DNA from: Bacteroidia bacterium
GTDB taxonomy: Bacteria > Bacteroidota > Bacteroidia > UKL13-3
Direction of reading: 5' to 3'
Assembly: GCA_051861545.1 (NCBI GenBank)
Contig: JBIMKP010000022.1
Coordinates: 2,025 to 66,024, forward strand
Length of the DNA: 64,000 nucleotides
Below the pieces are notes generated by a model, which was given only the letters and a program-made list of their open reading frames with translations, did not search any database and was not told where the DNA came from. The position numbers and the translations under genes were made by a program. This document shows positions 609 to 59,033 of the stretch, piece after piece (positions within the stretch are counted from its first letter, which is position 1; each line of letters opens with the position of its first letter).

Positions 609-871
609 AGGCTAGTATTAGCTTGGTTTTGTGTTTTTTTGAATAGGAAGATTAGCTTTGTAAAATAGATTTATAAATTAATAAAGGATTTTTAAAAACT
701 CAAATAAAGTACTTAAATTCAAAATTTAGTATAGAAACATAGATTATAATTATTTGGTGAAATCCAAAGAAAATAGGAATTCAAATTTAGAATATTTGTA
801 AAAACTATTTATTAATTAAAAAACTTAAGTTTATAATTTTGTAAACTTTTAATTATATTTGTTTTTGAAAA

Positions 872-1183
872 ATGATTGTAGAATTTGATGATGATGATTT
901 AGAAAAGCTTTATAAAACTCCATAGGAGCAAATCAAGGGTAAGCGAAAAATTCCTATTGAAGTAATTAAACAGTATAAAAAAAAGCTGGCAATCTTAATT
1001 GGAATCGAAACGATTGAAGATTTAAAGCCATTCAAAGGATTAAATTTTGAGTACTTGAAAGGTGATAGGAAAGGCCAATGTTCAATAAGGTTAAACGACC
1101 AATACAGATTGATTTTTGTTCCTAAAAAAGATGGAAGTATACAAGTTTTATTAATCAAAGAAATATCGAAACATTATGAATAA
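872..1183 (+). pseudogene. higB: HigB-like toxin (RelE/ParE superfamily) interrupted by in-frame TAG at 923..925
   Basis: Translation MIVEFDDDDLEKLYKTP*EQIKGKRKIP...LKGDRKGQCSIRLNDQYRLIFVPKKDGSIQVLLIKEISKHYE is continuous in one frame across the stop. The KGDRKGQxSIR(L/I)NDQ(Y/W)R(L/I)xF motif is characteristic of HigB killer proteins. The 3' end overlaps the higA start by 8 nt. Confidence 0.6.
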
Positions 1184-1532
1184 GAAAGAGAAGAAAATAG
1201 CTAATGATTTGATACCGGGAGATATCTTCCATCCAGGAGAGCATTTAAAAGATGAATTAGAAGCAAGAGAAATGAACCAGCAAGATTTGGCTGATCAACT
1301 ACACTTAAGTAAATCTGAAATTAGCCTAATCATCAATGGTCATAGAAATATTACACCCACCATTGCTGTTAAGCTGGAAGAGGCACTCGGTATCAATGCT
1401 GAATTCTGGATGAATATTCAAATTAAATATGATATTGATTTGGTCAAGAAAAAGTTTCAACAGAATCTTCAAAAATCTAAGATTTCTGCAGTGAAAAAGG
1501 AAAAATTGAAGAAAGTAATTTCTGTAGCTTAA
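1176..1532 (+). CDS. higA: HigA-type antitoxin, XRE-family HTH protein
   Basis: 118 aa; HTH segment NQQDLADQLHLSKSEISLIINGHRNITPTIAVKLEEALG is typical of HigA antidote proteins; translationally coupled to higB. Confidence 0.75.
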   Translation: MNKKEKKIANDLIPGDIFHPGEHLKDELEAREMNQQDLADQLHLSKSEISLIINGHRNITPTIAVKLEEALGINAEFWMNIQIKYDIDLVKKKFQQNLQKSKISAVKKEKLKKVISVA

Positions 1533-1697
1533 TCTTTTCAATGCAAAAGAAATTATAGAAAACGTGGACACAATTAACCGAAAATATACTGGTAACATTT
1601 ACTTCGTTAATAGGTCTGTTTATAGTAATATTGAAAGAGATATTAATAATTTCTAATAATCAAGTATTATCAGAAATTGTCCTTGTAGCTTACTTAT

Positions 1698-2387
1698 TTA
1701 TTTAACAGAATTGTATTCATTCCACAACTTCAACATTTCCTGAATTTCTTGCCATTCTTCTAAATAAGCGCCTGAAGGAATAAAGAACTTTTTATCAAAT
1801 TTTTTGAAATATTCTGAAGCCTTTTTACTTCCAGAAATTGTGGCATAAAACAATTCATAAGCCAAATCTATTTTATCTTCCGACATTTCACCCTTTGTAC
1901 TTTCATATTTTTTAATCACCAAATTTATACTTTCCTGATTGTACATTTTTAATTCAGGATTGATGATTAAATTGCGTTTTAATTCACCTTGTTTGAAATA
2001 GAATTTTTCAATAGTATAAATATTTGCTAAAACTTCACGATTACCTCCATTTGCCATTAGTTTAAATTCTCTAATAAATAAAGTGTCATTCTCTAATGTA
2101 ACCTTGCAATCTCTTAAAGCATCCCAAAATCCAAGTGAACTATCCATATCACATCTGTTCAAATAAAATTCACTGAATATATTAGGATTCCCTTCTCGAT
2201 ATCCACATATTGCTAATGATTTGCCATTTGAAAATGTATAGATGGAATCTGCTTTTACTTTTTTCGCATCATGAATAATACATTCACAATTTGTTGTTTG
2301 GGCATGTGATGTCAATACCCCAAAAAGTATTATTATGAACAAGATATATTTCTTCATTTGATTTTTAGTTTTAATTCTCATCTTCAA
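1698..2387 (-). CDS. hypothetical secreted protein
   Basis: ORF with N-terminal signal peptide (MKKYILFIIILFGVLTSHAQ); the real start is probably the internal Met near 2357. Confidence 0.5.
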   Translation of the reverse strand: MKMRIKTKNQMKKYILFIIILFGVLTSHAQTTNCECIIHDAKKVKADSIYTFSNGKSLAICGYREGNPNIFSEFYLNRCDMDSSLGFWDALRDCKVTLENDTLFIREFKLMANGGNREVLANIYTIEKFYFKQGELKRNLIINPELKMYNQESINLVIKKYESTKGEMSEDKIDLAYELFYATISGSKKASEYFKKFDKKFFIPSGAYLEEWQEIQEMLKLWNEYNSVK

Positions 2388-2904
2388 TTTTACTTTCCGA
2401 ATTTGATTTACTTTTACTATCGATGAAATCAGTTATTTCTTTACTTCTTGTCAAAATCAAATAAGCAATCACAACCTGAATTCCATTCACCAAAATATTT
2501 TCAGTAGATGGATCATTCAATAAGGTTTCTTTGCTTTGAACATAATAATACAATTCTCTACATAATTCAGGAAAACCAAGAATCACTTGTATGGCACCAA
2601 ATATAATCACACAAACATGTATCAATTGTTTTGAGTTCAATTCTAAATTGAGATTTTCTTGCTGATAACCTTTGTCAAGCTTGAGTTTTTCGATGATGAT
2701 ACCTGGATTAAATATCAAATACTTAATCAGTAAATAAAATGCAATTGCCGTTAATAAAACTACTGAAATTGCGAATATTGGTTTTTCAAATAAACTATTA
2801 GAATAGAGTATTAAAATTGATTGTGGTAATAATATAATCGTTTGTACCAAGAAATAGATGCCAATTACTTTTAATATAAATACCCAAAATGTATGCAGAC
2901 TCAT
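2371..2904 (-). CDS. hypothetical integral membrane protein
   Basis: 177 aa with 4-5 hydrophobic helices. Confidence 0.5.
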   Translation of the reverse strand: MSLHTFWVFILKVIGIYFLVQTIILLPQSILILYSNSLFEKPIFAISVVLLTAIAFYLLIKYLIFNPGIIIEKLKLDKGYQQENLNLELNSKQLIHVCVIIFGAIQVILGFPELCRELYYYVQSKETLLNDPSTENILVNGIQVVIAYLILTRSKEITDFIDSKSKSNSESKIEDEN

Positions 2905-3036
2905 ATGGTTTTATTTAGTTTTAGATACGTATTTCTTAATAGGAAATTTAGTTCTAGGATAATAATATATTAAGGTGCTTAAATCATAAAATGAACTAAA
3001 TACAATAAGTCAATATAGCAACATTAATTGATTTAT

Positions 3037-3717
3037 TTATGCAGTTAATATAACTATTCTTTTGAGAAATTTTCCATCTTTAATTATCCATAATACAGCA
3101 TACGAACCTGCTCCATCACTATTTTTAGCAATGATATACAAGCTATTTGTATCCTTGTCTTGATACATATTTGTCAATTTTAAATTTGGATTGAATAGTT
3201 GATTTGTTGGAAGATTGATATCAGTTTTTTCTCTACTCAACTTTAATGATTGATACTCCATTTTTGGCATTTCACCATCAGTTCCCCAAAATTTAGTAGC
3301 ATCTATTTTATCAATAAAATTATTCTTATAAGTGATTTGATGTTTTTTACTATCAAATGTTCCTGTTTTGATAGTCAATTTATAGGAGTCTAAAACCAAT
3401 TGATTTGAAGATTTACTTAATTCATTTCTTTTAGCTTTTTGAAAACTTTGAATTTGTGTTAAACCACTTTTGTGAATGAATCCATTTTTGTTTTTGGTTT
3501 CTAAATTATAAATAACCGGAATCCAATCTGTGGAAGATTCTTGTTCTAATTCATCTATCATCACAATACTACCATTGCTTAGTTTTTGTATGATGTTTTT
3601 TCCTAATTTGGCAGTTTCTCGAACATAAACATAGCCATCTTTTGATTGTATAATGGCAAATTGAGCATTTACATTTAAACATGTAAAAAGGAGTAAAGAA
3701 ATTATAAATTTTTTCAT
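3037..3717 (-). CDS. hypothetical secreted protein (SH3b-like N-terminal region)
   Basis: Signal peptide MKKFIISLLLFTCLNVNAQ; no recognisable catalytic motif. Confidence 0.5.
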   Translation of the reverse strand: MKKFIISLLLFTCLNVNAQFAIIQSKDGYVYVRETAKLGKNIIQKLSNGSIVMIDELEQESSTDWIPVIYNLETKNKNGFIHKSGLTQIQSFQKAKRNELSKSSNQLVLDSYKLTIKTGTFDSKKHQITYKNNFIDKIDATKFWGTDGEMPKMEYQSLKLSREKTDINLPTNQLFNPNLKLTNMYQDKDTNSLYIIAKNSDGAGSYAVLWIIKDGKFLKRIVILTA

Positions 3718-3907
3718 AGGAATTAAAACATAAATATAAAAACCTGAAGTAAATTTTCAAAATAAGATATTTTGAATCCAATTTATTTAGGACCCTTTAT
3801 TGACTTAAATCAACTTTCTCAAGGTTAAAAGTCATTAAAAAACCTGACTGCCGTCATTATTTGAACTTAGCCATGGTAATAGTTTTACCGAACCTAAAAT
3901 TAAATCT

Positions 3908-5068
3908 ATGCCATTATATAGACAAGTTGGAATTATACCTGAAAAACGTCATATTGTATTTCGTCAACCAAATGGTAATCTTTACCATGAAGAATTATTT
4001 GGTACAGAAGGCTTTGCTGGAATGTCATCTTTGGTTTACCATATCTATCCTCCAACAAGGGTTAAAGAAATGGGAAAACCTTATTCTGTTCGTCCAGAAG
4101 TTGCTATAGAAGATAACCTTCAAGCCAGAAGTTATATGGCGTATAAAGCACCTCAGGTTCCAGATTATTTGGAATCAAGAAAGACGCTTTTTATTAATGA
4201 TGATATGACAATTGGAGTTGCCGCTCCAACTGTTGGTACAAAAGATTATTTCTACAAAAATGCCGATGCCGATGAAATGATTTTCATTCACAAAGGTGAT
4301 GGTACTTTAAAAACCATGTATGGCAATATCGATTTTGCTTATGGTGATTATTTAATAATTCCTAGGGGAACTGTTTATCAATTCGAATTTAAATCAACTG
4401 ACAATAGATTGTTGATTGTTGAATCACATGGTCCTATTGAAACGCCTGCTAGGTATAGAAACAATTATGGTCAATATCTAGAACATTCTCCATTTTGTGA
4501 AAGAGATTTACGTGGTCCACAAAACATGGAAACACATGAAGAAGAGGGTGAGTTTTTAATTAAAATAAAAAAGCGCGGATTGATTTATCCTTATGTTTAT
4601 GAAAACCATCCTTTTGATTTAATAGGATGGGATGGATGCTCGTATCCTTATGCTTTTTCAATCTTTAATTTTGAGCCAATAACAGGTCGTATTCACATGC
4701 CTCCGCCAATTCATCAAACTTTCCAAGGTAGAAATTTTGTGATTTGTTCTTTCGTACCTAGGTTATATGATTACCATCCACAAGCCATTCCTGCTCCATA
4801 CCATCATAGCAATGTAGATAGCGACGAATTGTTGTATTATGTTGATGGTGATTTCATGAGTAGAAACAATATTCAAAAAGGTCAAATAACATTACATCCA
4901 GGTGGCATTCCACATGGTCCACACCCGGGTGCCATTGAAAGAAGTATTGGTAAAACTGTTACCAATGAATTGGCAGTAATGATAGACCCTTTTAATCCAG
5001 TTAAAATAACCAAAGAAGCTTTAGAACTTGAAGTAGAAGAATATTACCAAAGTTGGAAAAGTAATTAG
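3908..5068 (+). CDS. hmgA: homogentisate 1,2-dioxygenase
   Basis: 386 aa; N-terminus MPLYRQVGIIPEKRHIVF and overall cupin-type organisation match bacterial HGD. Confidence 0.85.
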   Translation: MPLYRQVGIIPEKRHIVFRQPNGNLYHEELFGTEGFAGMSSLVYHIYPPTRVKEMGKPYSVRPEVAIEDNLQARSYMAYKAPQVPDYLESRKTLFINDDMTIGVAAPTVGTKDYFYKNADADEMIFIHKGDGTLKTMYGNIDFAYGDYLIIPRGTVYQFEFKSTDNRLLIVESHGPIETPARYRNNYGQYLEHSPFCERDLRGPQNMETHEEEGEFLIKIKKRGLIYPYVYENHPFDLIGWDGCSYPYAFSIFNFEPITGRIHMPPPIHQTFQGRNFVICSFVPRLYDYHPQAIPAPYHHSNVDSDELLYYVDGDFMSRNNIQKGQITLHPGGIPHGPHPGAIERSIGKTVTNELAVMIDPFNPVKITKEALELEVEEYYQSWKSN

Positions 5069-5112
5069 AAACAAAAATTGTTCAATAAATAAATTAAACC
5101 ATTTCATTCATC

Positions 5113-6267
5113 ATGACTGATTTAACCCAAGTTCAAAATTTCAATTATTCGAGCACAGAAAAGATTTTTGATAAAGCTCAAGATTTTCTTCCAATTAATG
5201 GAACAGATTATGTGGAATTGTATGTAGGAAATGCGAAACAAGCAGCTCATTATTATAAAACTGCATTTGGTTTTAAAGATTTAGCTTATGCTGGTTTAGA
5301 AACGGGTCTTCGCGACCGTACTTCATATGTTTTACAACAAGGCAAAATTAGATTGGTGCTAACAACTCCTTTTGACCCTGAAAGTGAAATAGCCCAACAT
5401 CTTCGTATGCATGGTGATGGAGTAAAAGTAATAGCTCTTTGGGTTGATGATGCTTTTGATGCATTTGAACAAACTACAAAAAGAGGTGCTAAACCTTACA
5501 TGCAGCCAAAAGCTTTAAGTGATGAAAATGGAACAGTGAAAATGAGTGGCATTCACACTTACGGCGATACTGTTCATGTTTTTATTGAAAGAAAAAACTA
5601 CAATGGAATTTTCCTTCCAGGTTATGAAAAACTTGATACAGGATATGAACCTGGAACTTGTGGCTTGAAATACATCGACCATATGGTTGGAAATGTTGAA
5701 TTAGGTTCAATGAATAAATGGGCAGATTTTTATGGGAATACCATGGGCTTTGCCAATTTGGTTACTTTCGACGATAAAGATATTTCTACTGAGTACACTG
5801 CATTAATGAGCAAAGTAATGTCCAATGGAAATGGATATATCAAATTCCCAATTAATGAACCTGCAATTGGAAAAAAGAAATCTCAGGTAGAAGAATATTT
5901 AGATTTTTACAGAGGTCCGGGTTGCCAACATATTGCTGTAGCTACTGATGATATTGTGTTTACAATTTCTGAAATGCGTAAACGTGGTGTTGAGTTTTTA
6001 TATGTTCCAGGAACTTATTATGATACAGTAGGAGATAGAGTAGGAGTGATAGCAGAAGACATGGAGGAGTTGAAAAAATGGGGAATTATGGTTGATAGAG
6101 ATGAAGAAGGTTATTTACTTCAAATCTTCACCAAACCAGTAGAAGACAGACCAACCTTGTTTTTTGAAATCATTCAAAGAAAAGGAGCTAAATCATTCGG
6201 AAAAGGAAATTTCCAGGCATTGTTTGAATCTATCGAAGCTGAACAAGCAAGAAGAGGTACATTATAA
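5113..6267 (+). CDS. hppD: 4-hydroxyphenylpyruvate dioxygenase
   Basis: 384 aa; two VOC modules; conserved C-terminal FFEIIQRKGAKSFGKGNFQALFESIE. Confidence 0.9.
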   Translation: MTDLTQVQNFNYSSTEKIFDKAQDFLPINGTDYVELYVGNAKQAAHYYKTAFGFKDLAYAGLETGLRDRTSYVLQQGKIRLVLTTPFDPESEIAQHLRMHGDGVKVIALWVDDAFDAFEQTTKRGAKPYMQPKALSDENGTVKMSGIHTYGDTVHVFIERKNYNGIFLPGYEKLDTGYEPGTCGLKYIDHMVGNVELGSMNKWADFYGNTMGFANLVTFDDKDISTEYTALMSKVMSNGNGYIKFPINEPAIGKKKSQVEEYLDFYRGPGCQHIAVATDDIVFTISEMRKRGVEFLYVPGTYYDTVGDRVGVIAEDMEELKKWGIMVDRDEEGYLLQIFTKPVEDRPTLFFEIIQRKGAKSFGKGNFQALFESIEAEQARRGTL

Positions 6268-6286
6268 TTTAGAGTTTTTCGCAATA

Positions 6287-6325
6287 AAAGGGATTTTGTT
6301 TCGGCAGGATCCCTTATTTTGTTTT
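6287..6325 (+). terminator. probable intrinsic terminator after hppD
   Basis: AAGGGAT...ATCCCTT stem followed by TTATTTTGTTTT. Confidence 0.45.
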
Positions 6326-6398
6326 AATATTTTATCAATAAGATTAAAAAAATTACTTGGCTTTTAGTTTAGTTTTTTGTTTAATTGTTTAAGAAGAA

Positions 6399-6947
6399 AT
6401 GGAACAACTTAGCTACCAACATATCAAACTTAAACCACTAAACCTTCATGAGTTGAAGTGGCTACTACATGGAAGAGATTACCTTGAAAAGAAATTAAAT
6501 CTAAATGCTATTCCTTTTGATTTAAGCGCCGGACCAGAATTTATGGAAGAGTTTGATTTGGCCTTGAAAGAATATCTGATTCCGCAGGTTCAACAAAATG
6601 AAGCACAATTTGAGTGGTTTACGCATTGGCTCATTATTGATACAAATATTCATGTGGCTGTTGGTGGAATTGGAATCAACGGTCTTCCAGATGAAAATGG
6701 AGAAGTTATGTTGGGATATTTCGTAAATGTAAGGTTTGAAGGAAAATCGTATGCAACAACCGCAACCAAATTATTATGTGATTGGGCTTTTCAAAACTCA
6801 AATGTTAAAGCTGTGATAGCAGATACTTTGCATGATGGACTTGCTTCACAAGCTGTTTTGAAGAAATGTGGCTTTATCATGAAAAACAAAACAGAGGATG
6901 TAATTAGATGGGAACTTAAAAACCCTAGTGTAAATTCATCAAAGTAA
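6399..6947 (+). CDS. GNAT family N-acetyltransferase
   Basis: 182 aa; GNAT core (HVAVGGIGINGL...GKSYATTATKLLCDWAF). Confidence 0.7.
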   Translation: MEQLSYQHIKLKPLNLHELKWLLHGRDYLEKKLNLNAIPFDLSAGPEFMEEFDLALKEYLIPQVQQNEAQFEWFTHWLIIDTNIHVAVGGIGINGLPDENGEVMLGYFVNVRFEGKSYATTATKLLCDWAFQNSNVKAVIADTLHDGLASQAVLKKCGFIMKNKTEDVIRWELKNPSVNSSK

Positions 6948-7926
6948 TTAACAAAGCTCCAAGAAATATAATAGCAAACAGAATTAAGTTTACTAAAATT
7001 ATTCCAATCGCTTTTGAAATTGATTTGCCTGTACTTTCCTGAAACATATTAAAATGTGCTCTCAAAAAGTATAAGATTGTACAAATTCCTATTGCTCCAA
7101 TTAAATATGATCTTATTAAAAAATAGTTGTTTGTATCATGTCCTCCGCTAAACCAACCAACTATATTACCCAAAATTGTGTTTAAACATAAACTCAACAA
7201 TAAAAAGGAGAAAAAATGCAATGTAAATATGGCATGGTCGAAGTAAATATAGTTTTGCTTTCTATGAAATACTTGTATCACTAATGCAAATAATGGCAAG
7301 TATATAAAAAGTGATTTAGGAAAGTTTTTTCCAAAAGCACTTAAAAACATATCCCAAATTGTTTCAGGTGTATAATTTGCTAAATCAATTCCTTTTTTAT
7401 GTCCGATATATTCCAACCAAATCATTTCATCTTCTGTTCCTTCAAGAACTGTTCTTGCTGAATCCAATTGTTTATAATCCTTGTATTGGCTCGATAATAT
7501 CAATCCATAATCACTTATATACGACATTTCATTATTGGTAGCCTTTTTTATTGAATCTACCTCAGCCAAATAGTTTTTTCTATGACTTTTTTTGAGCTCA
7601 GGTTCTGTGTTTTCAGGTAATAAATGTGGCAATAAAAAGGTGAAAAAACTCACAAATATGTACAATCTAACAGGTGGTAAATAGGAGGTTCTTTTACCTT
7701 TTAAATATTCTATTGTTAAGTAAGCTGGTTTGAAAAACAAGTATTGTATTGTTTTCCAAAATTTTCCTTCATAGTGAGTTAAATCTTCTGCGAAATGGGC
7801 AAATAAGCCCAAAAAACTCATTCGGGTTTCTATATTTTCTTGCCCACAATGCCCACAAAATCTATCTTCAACTATGTTTCCACAGTTTAAACAAGTTTTA
7901 TCTTCTCTGGTTTGATGATGGCCCAT
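6925..7926 (-). CDS. DUF3667-like membrane protein with N-terminal zinc ribbon
   Basis: CLNCGNIVEDRFCGHCGQEN double CxxC motif followed by multiple TM helices. Confidence 0.6.
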   Translation of the reverse strand: MGHHQTREDKTCLNCGNIVEDRFCGHCGQENIETRMSFLGLFAHFAEDLTHYEGKFWKTIQYLFFKPAYLTIEYLKGKRTSYLPPVRLYIFVSFFTFLLPHLLPENTEPELKKSHRKNYLAEVDSIKKATNNEMSYISDYGLILSSQYKDYKQLDSARTVLEGTEDEMIWLEYIGHKKGIDLANYTPETIWDMFLSAFGKNFPKSLFIYLPLFALVIQVFHRKQNYIYFDHAIFTLHFFSFLLLSLCLNTILGNIVGWFSGGHDTNNYFLIRSYLIGAIGICTILYFLRAHFNMFQESTGKSISKAIGIILVNLILFAIIFLGALLITLMNLH

Positions 7927-8245
7927 ACCGCGATTTTTTCTTCGATTATACTAAATATTATTCATTTTGCCTGCCTTCATCAAAATAGATAAAAGAAGTT
8001 TTTGATTCAAATACTTATATTTTATTGGCTAGTGTTTTAGAATTTATAATTACTTAAAGATATGTTTAAACCAAATTAAAGATTAAGTGATTTTAAGGGA
8101 AAATCAATTCATATTTTAAATTCAGTTTTGTAAAAAAAATCATAAACAAACTATTAATTATTAGTAATTTAATATTCCTTTTTGAAAATTAACTTACTTT
8201 GAATAATTCATCAGAATTCATTGTTTAAAAAGCTATTTAAAATTA

Positions 8246-11200
8246 ATGATTTCTAATCTAATCAATTGTATGAAACATCTTAAGAATTTTGTATATCTAC
8301 TTTTCTTTTTATTAGCATTTAATCCTAGCAAAACAAACGCTCAGGGCTTAGTAAAAGGGTTTCCACAAGCCAATGGTCCAGTTTATGCAATGGCAAGTAG
8401 AAATGATACCGTATTTGTAGGTGGGAATTTTACAAGTTTATTTAATCCTGATAGCATTATTTCTTTTGGTGGTTTGGTTGATCCAAATACAGGAAAACCA
8501 TCATCAAACTGGGATCAGCCCAATGGAGCCGTTTATGCAAGCACTCCTGATAAAAAAGGTGGTTTCTTTATTGGTGGTGATTTCTCTAAAGTAGCAAGTT
8601 TGAATGCTGTAAGAATAGCACATATTGATAGTTCTGGCACTTTACAAAATACATTTTCTAATACTGGAATTAATGGTGTTGTAAAATCTATGGTTACTTT
8701 AGGTGATACTTTATTTGTTGGGGGACAATTTAATCTCGTTGGTAGTTTTTTGGAATCTGCCGGTGGACCAGTTTTGAAAAATTCAGCTTTGGTTAGTTCT
8801 AATTTCCCTTCTATAAATGGTTACGTTTTTTGTGCTATACCCGATGGTGTTGGAGGTTGGTATGTTACAGGTAGTTTTACAAAAGTTGGAAATATTACAA
8901 GAAATAGAGCAGCTAGAATTGATGCAAATGGAAATGTTTTAGCTTGGAATCCTAATTTAAATGGAATTTGTTATGCCATGGTTAGGTATCAGAATTCTGT
9001 TTTTTTAGGAGGTCAATTCACAAATGTGGGAACCCTAGTTAGATCTGGAATAGCTTCAGTTGATACTGCTACAGGAGCAGCAAGTACTTGGGCACCTGGA
9101 TCTCCTTCTACAGTTGTTCGCTCATTTAGCATTAGCAACAATATACTTTATTTAGCAGGAGCATTTGGTACAATGGCTTCTCAAACTCGTCAAAGTCTTG
9201 CTGCATTTAATTTACCTAGTTTAACTTTAACGTCTTTTAGTACAACAATGTCGTTAACAAATGGCCAAGCCACATTATTTAGTGTATTGGCCCTTGGTAA
9301 CAAGGTTTTTGTTGGAGGTAGATTTGATAATATTGGAGGAAGCTCTAGAACTTGTTTAGCTGCTTTAAACCCTAGTAATGGCTTGGTAATACCCAATTGG
9401 AGTGCTAATGCAAATGATGTAGTTGAACAAATTAAATTTTTGAATGGTTTTATTTATGTTGGAGGTTCATTTACAACTGTAAAAGGTTTAAGCAGAAATT
9501 ATGTTGCTGCTGCTGACACTTCAACTGGTGCATTAAATTCTTTGAATCCTAGTATCAATGGTTTTGTAACCTGTATAGAAATAGACCCATTGGATTCAAC
9601 GCTTTATATAAGTGGGAATTTTTCGAATTATTTTCATTCAATCAATTTGAAAAATTTCACATCAATGTCTTGGCCTCTAAGAACAAATGCCTATGCTAAT
9701 ACCATTTCTCTCTTTGGTTCAAGGTTATTTGTTGGTGGTTATTTTACAAGTCTTGGAGGTTTTGAACGAACAAATCTTGCTGCTTTTAATACAAAAACTG
9801 GAGCTTTGTTAAGTTGGAATCCTGGCACCAATGGTCGTGTTGAAGCCATGTGTAATGTAAAAGATTCATTTATTTGGATTGGGGGGTATTTTACCGAGGT
9901 AAGTTCAATAAGTAGGGGACGTTTGGCTTGTTTCGACAGATTTGGTTCATTAAATAATTATCTATTCAGTTTTGATAATTACGTTAAAGCAATATCCTTT
10001 AGTGGCGATTCTATTCTTTATGTTGGAGGAAATTTTTTTACTTGTAGTACTTTAAGCCCTTTTGTATCTAGCTCTGTAGTTGCACACAAAATTGCAGCCA
10101 TAAATTTTAGAACGGCTAGGATTCAACCTTTTTGGAATCCTTCTTCAAATAATGAAGTAAACAGTTTATTTGTTGATGGAAACATACTTTATGCAGGTGG
10201 AACATTTTCAGCAATTGGCGGACAACCAAGAGCACTTTTAGCTGCTATATCAAGAAGTACAGCTCTTGCTACAAGTTTTGATGCTGGTTTATCTTCATCG
10301 GGCTCTTCTGTAAATTCATTATTAAAATACAATAACGAAATTATTGTTGGAGGCGGTTTTACATATGAAATTAATGGAAGAATTGTCCGTAAAAATTTAG
10401 CATCATTTCAAGTATCAAATAGTGCTTTAACAAGTTTTGTAAACGATCCTGATTTATCTGTTTTTACACTTTCAATGCATCTAAATAAAATGTATTGTGG
10501 TGGTGAATTCAAAGTATTAGGAGGAAAAGCAAGATCTAATTTAGGTGCTTTTTTAAGTAGTAATGGTGCAATATTGGATTTTAATTTGGGAGCGTCTAAT
10601 GCTTCTGGAAGTCAAAGTGTATTTAACATTAGTTGGTTCGATAACAACTTATTTTTAGGAGGTACATTTACTAAAATTGGAGACTCTTCACGTCAGTATT
10701 TTGGGGTTATTGATATACAAAATCAAACAGTTTTGCCATTCTATCCTAGTCCTAATGGTATTATTTATTCTACATATGTACACCAAGGATATTTATATAT
10801 AGCAGGTCAATTTACCAATATTGGTGGGGCGGCAAGAAATCGTTTGGCAATCTTTAATTATCCTTCTTTTACTTCAACTACCATCAATCCTAATTTTAGT
10901 GGTTGGCCTTTAACATACTATCCAAGTTCTCCTAGTAAAATTTTAATAGGTGGAGGTTTTACTACAATAGCAAGTGTAAGTGCACCAAATTCTGCAGCAT
11001 TTCAGTTACCAAGTTTTACAAGAATTATTGGAACTCCAACAGTAAACTCTTCTGTTAATAAGTACCTACTTAACAAAAATCATCTTTATGTTGCTGGAGG
11101 ATTTACATTAATTAATGGATTGTCGAAGCCTTATTTTGCCCAACTTGATTCTTCAAGTTATTTACCTACTTCATTTTCACCTTCTATTAATGGAAGTGTT

Positions 11201-16951: not shown

Positions 16952-17833
16952 TTATTTAGATTCAAAATGTTCAACGCAGATTTTAGCAATTTCTGCTATG
17001 ATTTTCTCATTGGTCTCCTCATTTTCTTTGCTATCTTTTACAAATACTGAAATAATCAAAATTTGACCATTTTTAAATGGAATTATTCCTACATCATTTA
17101 CCGCTTCAGTAATTCCTTTAGAATTTTGATCTGAAGTTCCTGTTTTATGTGCAACAATATATTTAGGTAGGAGGTAAGGAAGACGTTTGGCTCCCGTGTA
17201 ATTAATCGCCATGAATTCCAATAAAAGCCTTCTACTTTCTTCCGACAATATTTTATTGTTTTGTAAGGATTCAAGTATTGCTGTTATTGTTTTTAAATCT
17301 ACCCAGTTATCATAAATTCTTTCTCTTTTCTCATGTTTTTGTTGTTCTGTCCATTTCATGGAAATGCCTTTGAATCCTTCTTGATGAAAGAATTTTTCTA
17401 CAACAAGAGGAGAGCCAATCAGTTTAAATAAAAGATCACAGCTGTTGTTATCACTGTATGAAATAACATTGTTTAATAAATCAAAAATATTTACTTTACC
17501 TTTTTTTGATGGGAATTTTTCTATAAGAGGACCAAAGCTAGAAAAAATATCTTTTTCATCAAATTGAATTTCTTGTATTAATCTCAGATTACCTTCCTCA
17601 ACCTGTTTTAAGACATAAATTGCTAATGGTAATTTGTAAACGCTCATCATTGGAAATTTGGTTTCATTGAGTCGGTATAAACCATTTTTCTCCCCAATAA
17701 TTTTTACACCAACACCAATTTGAGCTTTGTAGTTTTTGCAGTACTCATCGAGTTTGATTTCCAATTTTGATTGCGAACATGAAATCAAAGATGAAGAACA
17801 AAACAAGATAAATAAGTAAATAATTTTATTCAT
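16952..17833 (-). CDS. class A beta-lactamase family serine hydrolase
   Basis: 293 aa; signal/lipobox; SVYK (SxxK), SDN and KTG motifs are all present. Confidence 0.8.
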   Translation of the reverse strand: MNKIIYLFILFCSSSLISCSQSKLEIKLDEYCKNYKAQIGVGVKIIGEKNGLYRLNETKFPMMSVYKLPLAIYVLKQVEEGNLRLIQEIQFDEKDIFSSFGPLIEKFPSKKGKVNIFDLLNNVISYSDNNSCDLLFKLIGSPLVVEKFFHQEGFKGISMKWTEQQKHEKRERIYDNWVDLKTITAILESLQNNKILSEESRRLLLEFMAINYTGAKRLPYLLPKYIVAHKTGTSDQNSKGITEAVNDVGIIPFKNGQILIISVFVKDSKENEETNEKIIAEIAKICVEHFESK

Positions 17834-18578
17834 GATTCAAGATAAACTTTAATCCTAATTCTCCATCAAATTCTATTTCTGAAAACAAATTCATTCCTAT
17901 TTTCTGTAACACTTTTGCTGATGAAGTATTTTCCTTTTTGCAGCGAGCAACAATTTGTTTGATGTCTAATATCTCAAAACCATATTTTAAAGTTGCTATT
18001 GCTGATTCTGTTGCATATCCCATATTCCAATATTCTTCAAGAAATCTGAATCCAATATCAGTTTCATTTAAATCTTCCTGAAATCTTAATCCACACCAGC
18101 CTAAAAATTGAGAATCTGTCTTTCTGTGAACAATCCATCTACATAGGGCCCGCTGAAAAAGACAGAAACAGGTCAGATTTTAGACGCTGCCAAATTAGAT
18201 GTATATATAATACTTCAATTTGGCAGCAACGACAAAGATGGCCTTGTTTCTGTCTTTAAGTTAATTGAAAACCAATTGTACTTAATGCAAGAATTTTTAA
18301 GTAATTGCTCTTAAAACCTTGCATTTAAATTATTAAATATAGTCTAATTGATTGATATTAAGTTCTAATAACGATTTTCAGCAGGCCTTACCTAATCCAT
18401 ATTTTGAATATTGCTCATAGTTTAAAATGAGTTCTTCTGCTTCCTGAATATTATTAAATGGCTTGTCACCTGTAAATTTTAATACATTCGGATTGGAATT
18501 TAATCGAAACAAATCTGGCGCATCATCTAAGGTCCATTCTCTTAAAATCAATCTTTCTGTTTCAGTAATAATTTTCAT
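17826..18578 (-). pseudogene. GNAT (RimJ/RimL-type) acetyltransferase split by MITE insertion
   Basis: N-terminal part (18578 to 18389: MKIITETERLILREWTL...YGLG) and C-terminal part (18145 to 17826: RWIVHRKTDSQFLGWCGLRF...GYATESA...) are separated by the 243-bp element. Removing the element plus one TSD copy restores YGLGRWIV in frame. Confidence 0.75.
18146..18388 (-). mobile_element. MITE-like palindromic element, copy 1 (reverse orientation)
   Basis: About 90% identical to the copies at 32423 and 50559; TIRs GGGCCCGCTGAAAA / TTTTCAGCAGGCC; flanked by TACATA / TACCTA (TSD TAGGTA with one mismatch). Confidence 0.8.
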
Positions 18579-24304: not shown

Positions 24305-24327
24305 AAGGGGCAATTGCCCCTTTTTTA
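24305..24327 (-). terminator. intrinsic terminator of rnpB
   Basis: GGGGCAATTGCCCC perfect hairpin flanked by A7/T6 runs. Confidence 0.8.
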
Positions 24328-24328
24328 C

Positions 24329-24701
24329 AAAATCATAAGCCGGGTTCTGTTATTAAACATTGCTGTTTAATTGGCTATCATTTCTCTTGGCCTGACGTTG
24401 CCATCAGGCTCTAGCAGTCTACCCACCTCAATATAATTTCCGAAGAAATTAAGCAAACGAGCAGTTTGACGATTGAGGCCTATTTGACCTTGCAACCCAT
24501 AAGGTTTACATTGCCTTCTTTATCACTAAAGAAGCGGTGGGCTCTTACTCCACCATTTCACCCTTACCAATTTAAATAAATAAACTGGCGGTATACTTTC
24601 TGTTGCACTTTCTGTATTTCTTGCGAAATCCTGTCTGTTAGGCAGTATGGTGCTCTGTGTTGCCCGGACTTTCCTCTGATTACTCAGCGATAACCGATTT
24701 T
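24329..24701 (-). ncRNA. rnpB: RNase P RNA, bacterial type A
   Basis: Minus-strand transcript contains GAGGAAAGUCCGGGC (P4), ACAGAAAGUGCAACAGAAA, GGUAAGGGUGAAAUGGUGGAGUAAGAGCCCACC (P10-P12) and the 3' ACAGAACCCGGCUUAU (P4 3' strand), all universal RNase P RNA signatures. Confidence 0.85.
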
Positions 24702-24716
24702 GCTTGACAAAGGTAA

Positions 24717-32413: not shown

Positions 32414-32422
32414 CATTATTTA

Positions 32423-32665
32423 GGGCCTGCTGAAAATCTTTATTAGAACTTATTATCAATCAATTAGATTGTGTTTAAATAATTTAAATGCAAGGTTTTA
32501 AGAACAATGGCTAAAAATCCTTGCATCAAGTAAAATTAGTTTTCAAATTAAATAAAGACAGAAACAAGGCCATCTTTGTCGTTGCTGCCAAATTGAAGTA
32601 TTATATATACATCTAATTTGGCAGCGCCTAAAATCTGACCTGTTTCTGTCTTTTTCAGCAGGCCC
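32423..32665 (+). mobile_element. MITE-like palindromic element, copy 2
   Basis: TIRs GGGCCTGCTGAAAA...TTTTCAGCAGGCCC; perfect 6-bp TSD TATTTA on both sides (32417..32422 and 32666..32671). Confidence 0.85.
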
Positions 32666-32748
32666 TATTTATGATGGAATTGTAAATTTTGATTTAATCA
32701 TTGATTTTCACTTGGAAAAATCGCATATTAGCAGTAAATACTGATTAA

Positions 32749-45340: not shown

Positions 45341-45894
45341 TCAAGTTATTTTATTTAAATCAGCCTTAATTTTATCAAGCTCTATTAGTAAGTAATTTAT
45401 TTCAAGTCCTTCAAATTGGTTTCTAAGATTCAGACTAATTTTAATCTTTCTACAAAGCCAATCTGTAAATGGCCCATAATTATATTTTTCGGCCGGAGAT
45501 CCATCAAAAGCACAATCTGCTTGAATATAGAGTTCCACATTTGGGTTTTCTGAATTAAGCTTGAAATGATAGAAGTTATAGCCCTGCCATTGTGCAAAAA
45601 CAAATTGATTAGGACTGATTTCATTTTTGTCTAATTCAATAGCTCTTTTGAAACCTCACTAGCATAATTTAAACCTGAAAGGGAAAAATCTTGGTGGTCA
45701 TAAATTTTTAACTTTGATTTTGCCATCTTGAATAAAAATAATCTATATGCTTTTGGAAATGTAACTCCTATCAGTTTTTCATATCTAATAATTTCTTCTT
45801 CACTATATCCTTCCGGAAATATTTCAAGTTTATTTTTAATTAGAAAATCAAGAATGGAACAATAGAAATTCTCAAGATAATCTGTTTTGTTCAT
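45341..45894 (-). pseudogene. SMI1/KNR4 (SUKH-1) family immunity-type protein, frameshifted
   Basis: N-terminal 87-aa ORF (…FPEGYSEEEIIRYEKLIGVTFPKAYRLFLFK…) stops at 45631. The continuation KNEISPNQFVFAQWQGYNFYH...ELYIQADCAFDG...DKIKADLNKIT is open in another frame down to 45341. Confidence 0.65.
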
Positions 45895-50542: not shown

Positions 50543-50558
50543 ATCACTAACTAATGTA

Positions 50559-50802
50559 GGGCTTGCTGAAAATCTAAATTAGCACTAATTATCAATCAAT
50601 TGAATTAGTTTTTTATAAATCACGGGAAAGGTTTTAAGAACAATTGCTTAAAAATCCTTGCATCAAGTAAAATTAGATTTCAAATTACCTAAAGACAGAA
50701 ACAAGGCCATCTTTGTCGTTGCTGCCAAACTGAGGTATTATTTATACATCTATTTTGGCAGCGTCTAAAATCTGACCTGTTTCTGTCTTTTTCAGCGGGC
50801 CC
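50559..50802 (+). mobile_element. MITE-like palindromic element, copy 3
   Basis: TIRs GGGCTTGCTGAAAA...TTTTCAGCGGGCCC; 7-bp TSD TAATGTA (50552..50558 and 50803..50809); lies 16 bp upstream of the start codon of the 50108..50542 gene. Confidence 0.85.
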
Positions 50803-51027
50803 TAATGTAAATTTATCGGTCTTAAATGGAAACATATGTCTGTTATCTTGGGCTTAAATCTAAGGTTTTTTAGCTAGACGAAGTGGTTGACTTTGATGCA
50901 CCTACTTTCAATTTGGCATATAATCCGATAATTTGCCAAACTGCGGTTAAAGTTTTGGGCTCAATTTCGGTTAAGATTATTTTTTATTTTCCTGTTCTTC
51001 AAAATTGTTAAAGTATGTAAAAGGCAT

Positions 51028-57809: not shown

Positions 57810-58656
57810 CTATGCCATAGCTACCTCCTCCTTTTTTTGTTTATTGATTTGATAATAATTTTTCCATCGTTTGTTGAGTTTTCCGGTTCCTTGATGTGCT
57901 TCAACAGGTTTAAGATTATCAATGCTCCCATGCGGTCTTAAATGATTGTAAGTGCTACAAGCTACAGCTATTGCTAGTTGTGCTATTTTAAAATCGACAA
58001 ATACCTCTTCTAAAAGTTCAGATTTTAAAATACCGTTTACTCTTTCTGCAAGCGGGTTTTCCAAGGGGTCTCCATTTTCTGTCATTGAAATTTTAATGGT
58101 ATTATTGTGTAATAACTTTACATATTCATCGCAGCAGTATTGCACTCCTCTATCACTGTGATGAATTAAATTTTCACAATCTGTATTACCGGTCAAAGCC
58201 ATTTTTAATGCTTTTAATGGACCTTTTGCCGATAAATCTTCACTCAAATAAAAGCCAACAATTTTATGGCTGTATGCATCTGTTATAAGTGATAAATAAG
58301 CAAAGTCATCCGATAAATGAATATAGGTTATATCACTTACCCAAAGCTGATTAGGGGCAATGGGTATAAAGCCTTTAATGATGTTTGGAAAGTGTGGTTA
58401 TACATCCTTTGCGCCTTCGTTTTGTAATCAACATGCCTCGTTCTGCCAATAGATTAAACATTGCATCTCTTCCTATTTGAAAATTATGGTCTTCTAAAAA
58501 TCCTTGCATTTCATGCAATAGTTTTCGGGTGCCTAATCGCTTCTGATGCTTTCGATAACGCAACACTTCATCAATGACAATATCAGCTTCGTATGCTTTT
58601 TGCTGAATAAATTTTAGGCCTTGATAGTAGCTTTGCCTACTATAACCAAGCAGCAA
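57810..58656 (-). pseudogene. IS3-family transposase OrfB (rve integrase core), frameshifted
   Basis: DDE region ...WVSDITYIHL..., HSDRGVQYC, ERVNGILKSE. The reading frame breaks at about 58375 between ...TLSKHH* and KGFIPIAPNQLW. Confidence 0.7.
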
Positions 58657-58700
58657 ACAAAGGTCGTTTATGCAACGAGGCTTCCTTTGTCCAACTGTTT

Positions 58701-59033
58701 CTACCGCTTGGTGCCAGACTTTTTTCTGATGTCAATTTTAAGTTGATCTTCTGCAATATCAATCATTGCGTTGAGCAGCTCGTTGTGAAGTTTTGCTTTA
58801 CGCAATTCTTCCTGCAAAGTTTTTACATCAGTTGGTAAGGGCTCTGCAGAAATTGGTTGGATTTGTGTTTTTGTTTTTGGCACTGATTTACCTTGAAATT
58901 TTCTTACCCACGAATGTATTAATCTGAAATCAATCTCATGCTTTTTTCCTAACTGGCGGTAACTTAATTCGCCCATTAAATACTCTGCAATGATTTTCTC
59001 TTGTTCTTCTTTTGTTTTCGTTCTTCTTTTCAT
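58701..59033 (-). CDS. IS3-family transposase OrfA (HTH/leucine-zipper)
   Basis: 110 aa; EEQEKIIAEYLMGELSYRQLGKKHEI helix-turn-helix. Confidence 0.8.
   Translation of the reverse strand: MKRRTKTKEEQEKIIAEYLMGELSYRQLGKKHEIDFRLIHSWVRKFQGKSVPKTKTQIQPISAEPLPTDVKTLQEELRKAKLHNELLNAMIDIAEDQLKIDIRKKSGTKR

Follow-up and report, generated by a model that had tools for sequence, protein, structure and literature searches.

Does a higBA toxin-antitoxin operon whose toxin frame carries a single in-frame amber codon still encode a toxin, and is that codon a genuine mutation or an error in the sequence? The locus that raises this question lies within the stretch of 64,000 nt that we analysed, hereafter called the window. 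Translation of the sequence showed that the higB frame opens at the ATG at 872 and runs for 103 codons to the TAA at 1181-1183, with TAG 923-925 (codon 18, in the context CCA TAG GAG) as its sole interruption. The 3′ end of the frame overlaps the higA ATG at 1176 by 8 nt (CAT TAT GAA TAA / ATG AAT AAG), and residues 62-82 form the HigB core motif LKGDRKGQCSIRLNDQYRLIF. The amber codon in an otherwise uninterrupted frame, the 8-nt overlap and the core motif had all been part of the original prediction, and each was recovered from the sequence. It had also been claimed that the six-frame ORF tool missed the toxin entirely and listed a spurious minus-strand ORF in its place. This ORF (910-1158) is indeed listed, but the toxin was not wholly missed, since a 42-aa tail starting at TTG 1055 and ending at 1183 appears at the 30-aa threshold. 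The antisense ORF gave no Pfam match at E ≤ 1, and the strand opposite to it holds the conserved HigB frame. The features of the locus are the following:

827..848, no strand assigned: palindromic putative HigA operator, AAGTTTATAATTTTGTAAACTT (inverted repeat, 24 nt upstream of the higB ATG)
854..861, plus strand: presumed Bacteroidota-type -7 box, TATATTTG (match to the pattern TAnnTTTG, 10 nt before the ATG)
872..1183, plus strand: higB toxin gene, probably now a pseudogene, with its frame interrupted once (translation; PF05015 match across the stop)
910..1158, minus strand: spurious antisense ORF of 82 aa over the higB frame (ORF list; no Pfam match)
923..925, plus strand: in-frame amber TAG at codon 18, apparently from TTG (Leu) through T924A (translation; alignment with the relatives L001, L002 and L003)
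1055..1183, plus strand: remaining ORF of 42 aa, opened by the TTG that is the first canonical start in frame downstream of the stop (ORF list; modelled secondary structure)
1176..1532, plus strand: intact higA antitoxin gene, encoding an XRE-type HTH repressor of 118 aa (TIGR02607; PF01381; PDB relatives)

To establish what the interrupted frame encoded, we masked the stop and aligned the translation to the HigB-like toxin profile PF05015. The match reached 51.8 bits (E = 1.2e-13) over residues 4-83, thus spanning the stop, against a curated cut-off of 27 bits. A protein search returned 134 homologues at E ≤ 1e-3 (best, 1.4e-58), all of them carrying PF05015 and nearly all exactly 103 aa long, and by these sequence comparisons the family match is far above chance. 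In an alignment of 110 sequences, the columns corresponding to G23, K24, R73, K100, H101, Y102 and E103 were invariant or nearly so, and the frame in the window keeps every one of these residues, which by analogy with P. vulgaris HigB would have a catalytic role. When the intact orthologue, with Leu at position 18, was modelled with AlphaFold, the pLDDT was 86.9 and the fold comprised a strand (residues 3-5), a helix (8-15), two further helices (29-44 and 48-51) and, between residues 59 and 96, four strands. The top matches of the model in the PDB were structures of P. vulgaris HigB, with TM-scores of 0.69-0.71 when normalised to the query and 0.77 when normalised to the target; this RelE-type fold pertains to the conceptual full-length product only. 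By sequence, GraT of P. putida (6F8S) was the only solved structure detectable with HigB (E = 5e-7). Profile, predicted fold and homologues together bore out the assignment of the frame to a HigB toxin of the RelE/ParE fold.

The downstream antitoxin gene had been described as intact, and this also stood. The ORF at 1176-1532 is open, and its product matched the NCBIfam equivalog TIGR02607 with 74.9 bits (cut-off 47.7) and PF01381 (HTH_3; cut-off 23) with 47.7 bits. The PDB relatives of this protein (3trb, 3cec and 4mcx) are HigA structures, and higA lies downstream of higB in 79 of 80 related loci. A second higBA copy, with which cross-regulation might be possible, was absent from the 64-kb window.

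We then asked what the stop had replaced. The best homologue, P0001, has Leu at position 18 and agrees with the conceptual HigB of the window at each of the remaining 102 positions. It is encoded on three contigs, namely JAIYDG010000177.1, which belongs to the NCBI pond MAG ‘Bacteroidetes bacterium H1_MAG_00027’, and contigs of the Logan assemblies SRR35819076 and SRR35819081, which are separate SRA runs. The window and the P0001 contigs have in common the gene order GNAT acetyltransferase, higB, higA, hypothetical genes and hgmA. DNA alignment placed TTG at codon 18 in all three relatives (L001, the pond MAG contig, L002 and L003) versus TAG in the window, and besides T924A only two differences were found in higB, both synonymous. 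In higA, four synonymous and two non-synonymous changes (N40D and K41Q) separate the window from L001; positions 40 and 41 of HigA vary freely across the family. Position 18 of HigB is Leu in 99 of the 110 aligned family members and lies inside a near-invariant T-P-L motif. Because the relatives have TTG and the family has Leu at this position, the alignments indicate that the stop is derived, through a single T-to-A transversion at 924 that turned TTG into TAG. With only three differences from the orthologue, relaxed selection after inactivation is not demonstrable.

Two further observations concern the surroundings of the substitution. The segment 153-1532 of the window (GNAT gene, intergenic region and higBA) is 97-99% identical to L001, and the genes at 1533-9300 are only 82-96% identical to it, which suggests either recent recombination or transfer between lineages of the block carrying higBA, or an unusually strong conservation of this block. 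Also, positions 919-927 and 952-960 form a 9-nt quasi-palindrome in which T924A turns a T/T mismatch into a pair, raising the matches from 7 to 8 of 9. A template-switch origin of T924A was considered on this basis and rejected as not significant, since 8.8% of the possible substitutions in 872-1532 do likewise.

Our preferred interpretation, which we consider likely, is that higB was recently knocked out by a real point mutation, T924A, leaving HigA as an orphan autorepressor. The original prediction had offered a disarmed toxin or a sequencing error; both readings stay in play, with the disarmed toxin favoured. According to the second one, the TAG is an artefact of sequencing, consensus or assembly, or a minority variant in the MAG consensus, and the true higBA is intact and encodes a protein identical to P0001. 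We regard this as unlikely, although it carries appreciable weight. All three assemblies of the closest relative have TTG, and the rest of higB differs synonymously only, as expected of an intact gene under selection. Neither reads nor a second assembly of the strain that could confirm the base were found in the searched collections: exact look-ups for another assembly carrying the HigA of the window, its 42-aa ORF, its GNAT protein or the ORF 1698-2381 came back empty, and a 38-mer across codon 18 (with N at 924) matched only the contig of the relative in genome_contigs and nothing in the JGI metagenomes. Against an artefact, T924A is a substitution located in a non-repetitive context, outside any homopolymer (CCATAGGAG), and the comparison with L001 over ∼9 kb and twelve genes revealed no frameshifts or extra stops.

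The behaviour of higB in related loci also speaks against an artefact. The gene was clearly disrupted in 5 of 80 related metagenome loci, by a premature TAA at the position of Ser99 in L029 and by frameshifts in L033, L064, L066 and L072. Adding the less clear disruptions of L063 and L059 gives a total of 5-7 out of 80, that is, ∼6-9% of the loci. Whenever a full higA was present on the contig of a disrupted locus (L033, L063, L064, L066 and L072), the antitoxin gene downstream was unbroken (5 of 5). Errors in the assembly of the metagenomes may account for some of them. Because higB is disrupted in ∼6-9% of the loci, the prior for a real mutation is far above that for a substitution error in the consensus that by chance creates a stop.

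The window contains other disrupted genes, and one of them is split by the insertion of a 265-bp repeat, which is impossible as a base-call artefact. Two others, a SUKH gene and the orfB of an IS3 element, are each disrupted by a single frameshift near short homopolymers; these could equally reflect assembly errors and to that extent count in favour of an artefact at codon 18. The gene split by the repeat is a GNAT (Acetyltransf_3-like) gene at 17826-18578 (minus strand), with the ∼265-bp insertion at roughly 18105-18375. Further copies of the element occur at 32415-32683 and 50556-50812, with 90% and 86% identity and one of them inverted; the three copies in 64 kb make up a small MITE-like repeat family. 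The SUKH-1/SMI1_KNR4 immunity-like gene (45341-45894, minus strand) has a 1-nt frameshift near 45640-45655, beside TTT/AAAA runs, so that its first 87 aa run up to TAG 45631-45633 and its C-terminal part lies in another frame. The PF09346 match, 19.8 bits as found, reached 34 bits after conceptual repair (cut-off 25.4) and then extended over profile positions 3-123 of 125; the gene is either a real pseudogene or the product of a homopolymer indel error. The degraded IS3-family insertion sequence (57810-59033, minus strand) has an intact orfA (58701-59033), while an additional frameshift near 58370 breaks the orfB transposase in two, with pieces at 58375-58656 and 57810-58247. The window also holds a full-length bacterial RNase P RNA of class A at 24324-24702 (minus strand; 264.8 bits).

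If the stop is real, a functional product might nevertheless persist, either by read-through of the amber codon (at a low level or through a suppressor tRNA) or by re-initiation, which would give a truncated HigB serving either as a toxin or, if non-toxic, as a co-repressor. We consider this very improbable. The frame is pristine past the stop, and the promoter, the operator and higA are intact; a pristine downstream frame is, however, equally expected from a very recent mutation. As for read-through, TAG is a normal terminator in this window: it ends 8 of the 46 ORFs that reach 150 aa or more, among them hgmA (3908-5068, 386 aa) and the ORF 6925-7926 (333 aa), which have the same lengths as their L001 orthologues. 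No tRNA gene, and hence no suppressor candidate, was found in the 64 kb. Nor is the feature conserved, for a stop at this codon was seen in none of the 80 related loci.

With regard to re-initiation, the original prediction had mentioned a product lacking the N-terminal ∼18 residues. This proposal was not supported, as there is no in-frame ATG, GTG or TTG between 926 and 1054, and the first possible canonical product, from TTG 1055, is only 42 aa long. According to the model, this residual product would be devoid of strand 1 and of all the helices and is unlikely to fold or to be toxic; no gene encoding it is on record in the searched collection. The mutation itself creates an AGGAG that sits 3 nt before an in-frame ATC, and Shine-Dalgarno pairing is little used by Bacteroidota. 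Work on the GraTA module of P. putida bears on both sides of the question. Deleting the first 22 residues of GraT abolishes its mRNase activity and toxicity, which goes against a shortened HigB as a toxin, but the complex formed with the non-toxic toxin lacking these 22 residues binds the operator more tightly, a precedent according to which a truncated toxin could have a regulatory role (PMC6393540).

We give hardly any credence to the idea that the amber codon is a conditional switch, with full-length HigB (carrying Gln or another residue at position 18) appearing only upon suppression of UAG. A suppressor tRNA enters the cell with TAG-recoded (code 15) phages of Bacteroidota (PMC9523058, PMC10879173) and, if the idea were true, an amber-gated higB would be an abortive-infection trap that senses the altered genetic code of the phage. 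Its sole support is the pristine frame, the allele is a singleton whose stop is shared by none of the 80 related loci, and position 18 is strongly Leu. Likewise close to nil is the probability of an alternative genetic code in which TAG is read as sense and higB is intact, for which the in-frame TAG itself and nothing further can be adduced and which is refuted by the TAG-terminated genes whose lengths (386 and 333 aa) match those of their L001 orthologues and by the TTG (Leu) at the orthologous codon.

We next examined the region that would govern expression of the surviving antitoxin gene. A palindrome of the type AGTTTAC-N-GTAAACT occurs 17-27 nt before the higB start in 43 of 69 related loci, against a background of 47 out of 3253 100-nt tiles over all fetched DNA. 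The copy at 827-848 is a putative HigA operator, which would overlap the promoter. A TAnnTTTG box, which we take to be the -7 box from general knowledge of Bacteroides and Flavobacterium promoters, occurs in 39 of 69 related loci within the 40 nt that precede the start; there it lies downstream of the palindrome and, in most loci having one, 4-12 nt before the ATG. Since the box of the window is 10 nt before the ATG, the higBA mRNA would have a very short 5′ leader or none at all. Both the promoter box and the operator palindrome are intact in the window. When an internal promoter for higA was sought, no TAnnTTTG box was found on the plus strand inside higB, and a sigma-70 scan gave results no better than those of shuffled sequences. 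Given that no such box lies inside higB, higA probably depends on the promoter upstream of higB.

Under the preferred reading of a real T924A mutation, the following sequence of events can be proposed. The locus would be a type II higBA operon on the chromosome of a Bacteroidota bacterium with a low-GC genome, where T924A changes Leu18 from TTG to TAG. Only 17 residues of HigB are translated before the stop, and in the model these amount to no more than strand 1 and helix 1. Because neither the sheet of the RelE fold nor the C-terminal K-H-Y-E is made, no ribosome-dependent mRNase can form. The operon would still be transcribed from its own promoter, with the -7 box at 854-861, and HigA would be produced by independent initiation at ATG 1176, its translational coupling to higB having been lost. 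HigA would then bind the palindrome at 827-848 and repress its own promoter. The locus may thus represent an orphan antitoxin and autoregulator, at an intermediate stage of a decay in which the module loses its toxin first. No uninterrupted ORF covers the full HigB domain, owing to the TAG at codon 18, and with the toxin frame broken the locus does not encode an active toxin alongside a neutralising antitoxin. Apart from the unbroken toxin ORF, on which function depends, the locus shows all the sequence features of a HigB/HigA pair that were examined. Judged from the sequence, it is a degenerate higBA module with an orphan higA and not a functional type II addiction module.

The closest parallels for this module are found in characterised systems. 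The HigB-HigA module of P. vulgaris Rts1 (4MCT, 4MCX, 4PX8 and 4YPB) provides the best structural match of the modelled toxin and shares with the locus an upstream toxin gene, a HigA of the XRE-HTH type and a palindromic operator upstream. It differs in that the sequence identity of the toxins is ∼20%, the C-terminus reads D-Y-H there and K-H-Y-E here, the P. vulgaris module resides on an enterobacterial plasmid whereas this one is a chromosomal Bacteroidota locus, and the toxin of the window is stopped at codon 18. GraT-GraA of P. putida (6F8S) is, like this locus, a chromosomal module of the HigBA family. However, the N-terminus of GraT is disordered, whereas residues 3-15 of the modelled orthologue form a strand and a helix with a pLDDT of ∼90, and GraT is intact and conditionally toxic.

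As regards the mode of loss, it is established for ccdO157 (Mine et al. 2009, as cited in PMC7167474) and other E. coli systems that chromosomal toxin-antitoxin modules decay through nonsense mutations and that the toxin is the first to be inactivated (PMC7167474). Klebsiella, in turn, is rich in orphan antitoxins (PMC7192599). The present locus resembles ccdO157 and the Klebsiella orphan antitoxins in that a point or nonsense mutation has disabled the toxin, with an antitoxin gene that is still intact and sits at a conserved chromosomal site. On the other hand, the CcdB toxin of ccdO157 is a gyrase poison and HigB an mRNase, and the dead higB allele is seen here in a single genome. The original prediction had also proposed an anti-addiction role for the surviving HigA. 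This role found no support, the closest plasmid or phage homologues of HigB being <45% identical in a sampling that covers environmental Bacteroidota plasmids poorly.

Taken together, these data describe an ordinary higBA pair undergoing a known mode of decay, which opens no new question. For annotation, higB should be labelled as a pseudogene followed by an intact higA, and the antisense ORF at 910-1158 should be dropped. The locus offers a clean example of the first step in toxin-first decay, in which one nonsense change has occurred and the remainder is intact, and the family-wide scan indicates that this pattern of toxin loss recurs among Bacteroidota HigBA modules. In addition, the conserved operator palindrome and the near-leaderless layout of this HigBA subfamily would be useful for studies of toxin-antitoxin regulation in Bacteroidota.
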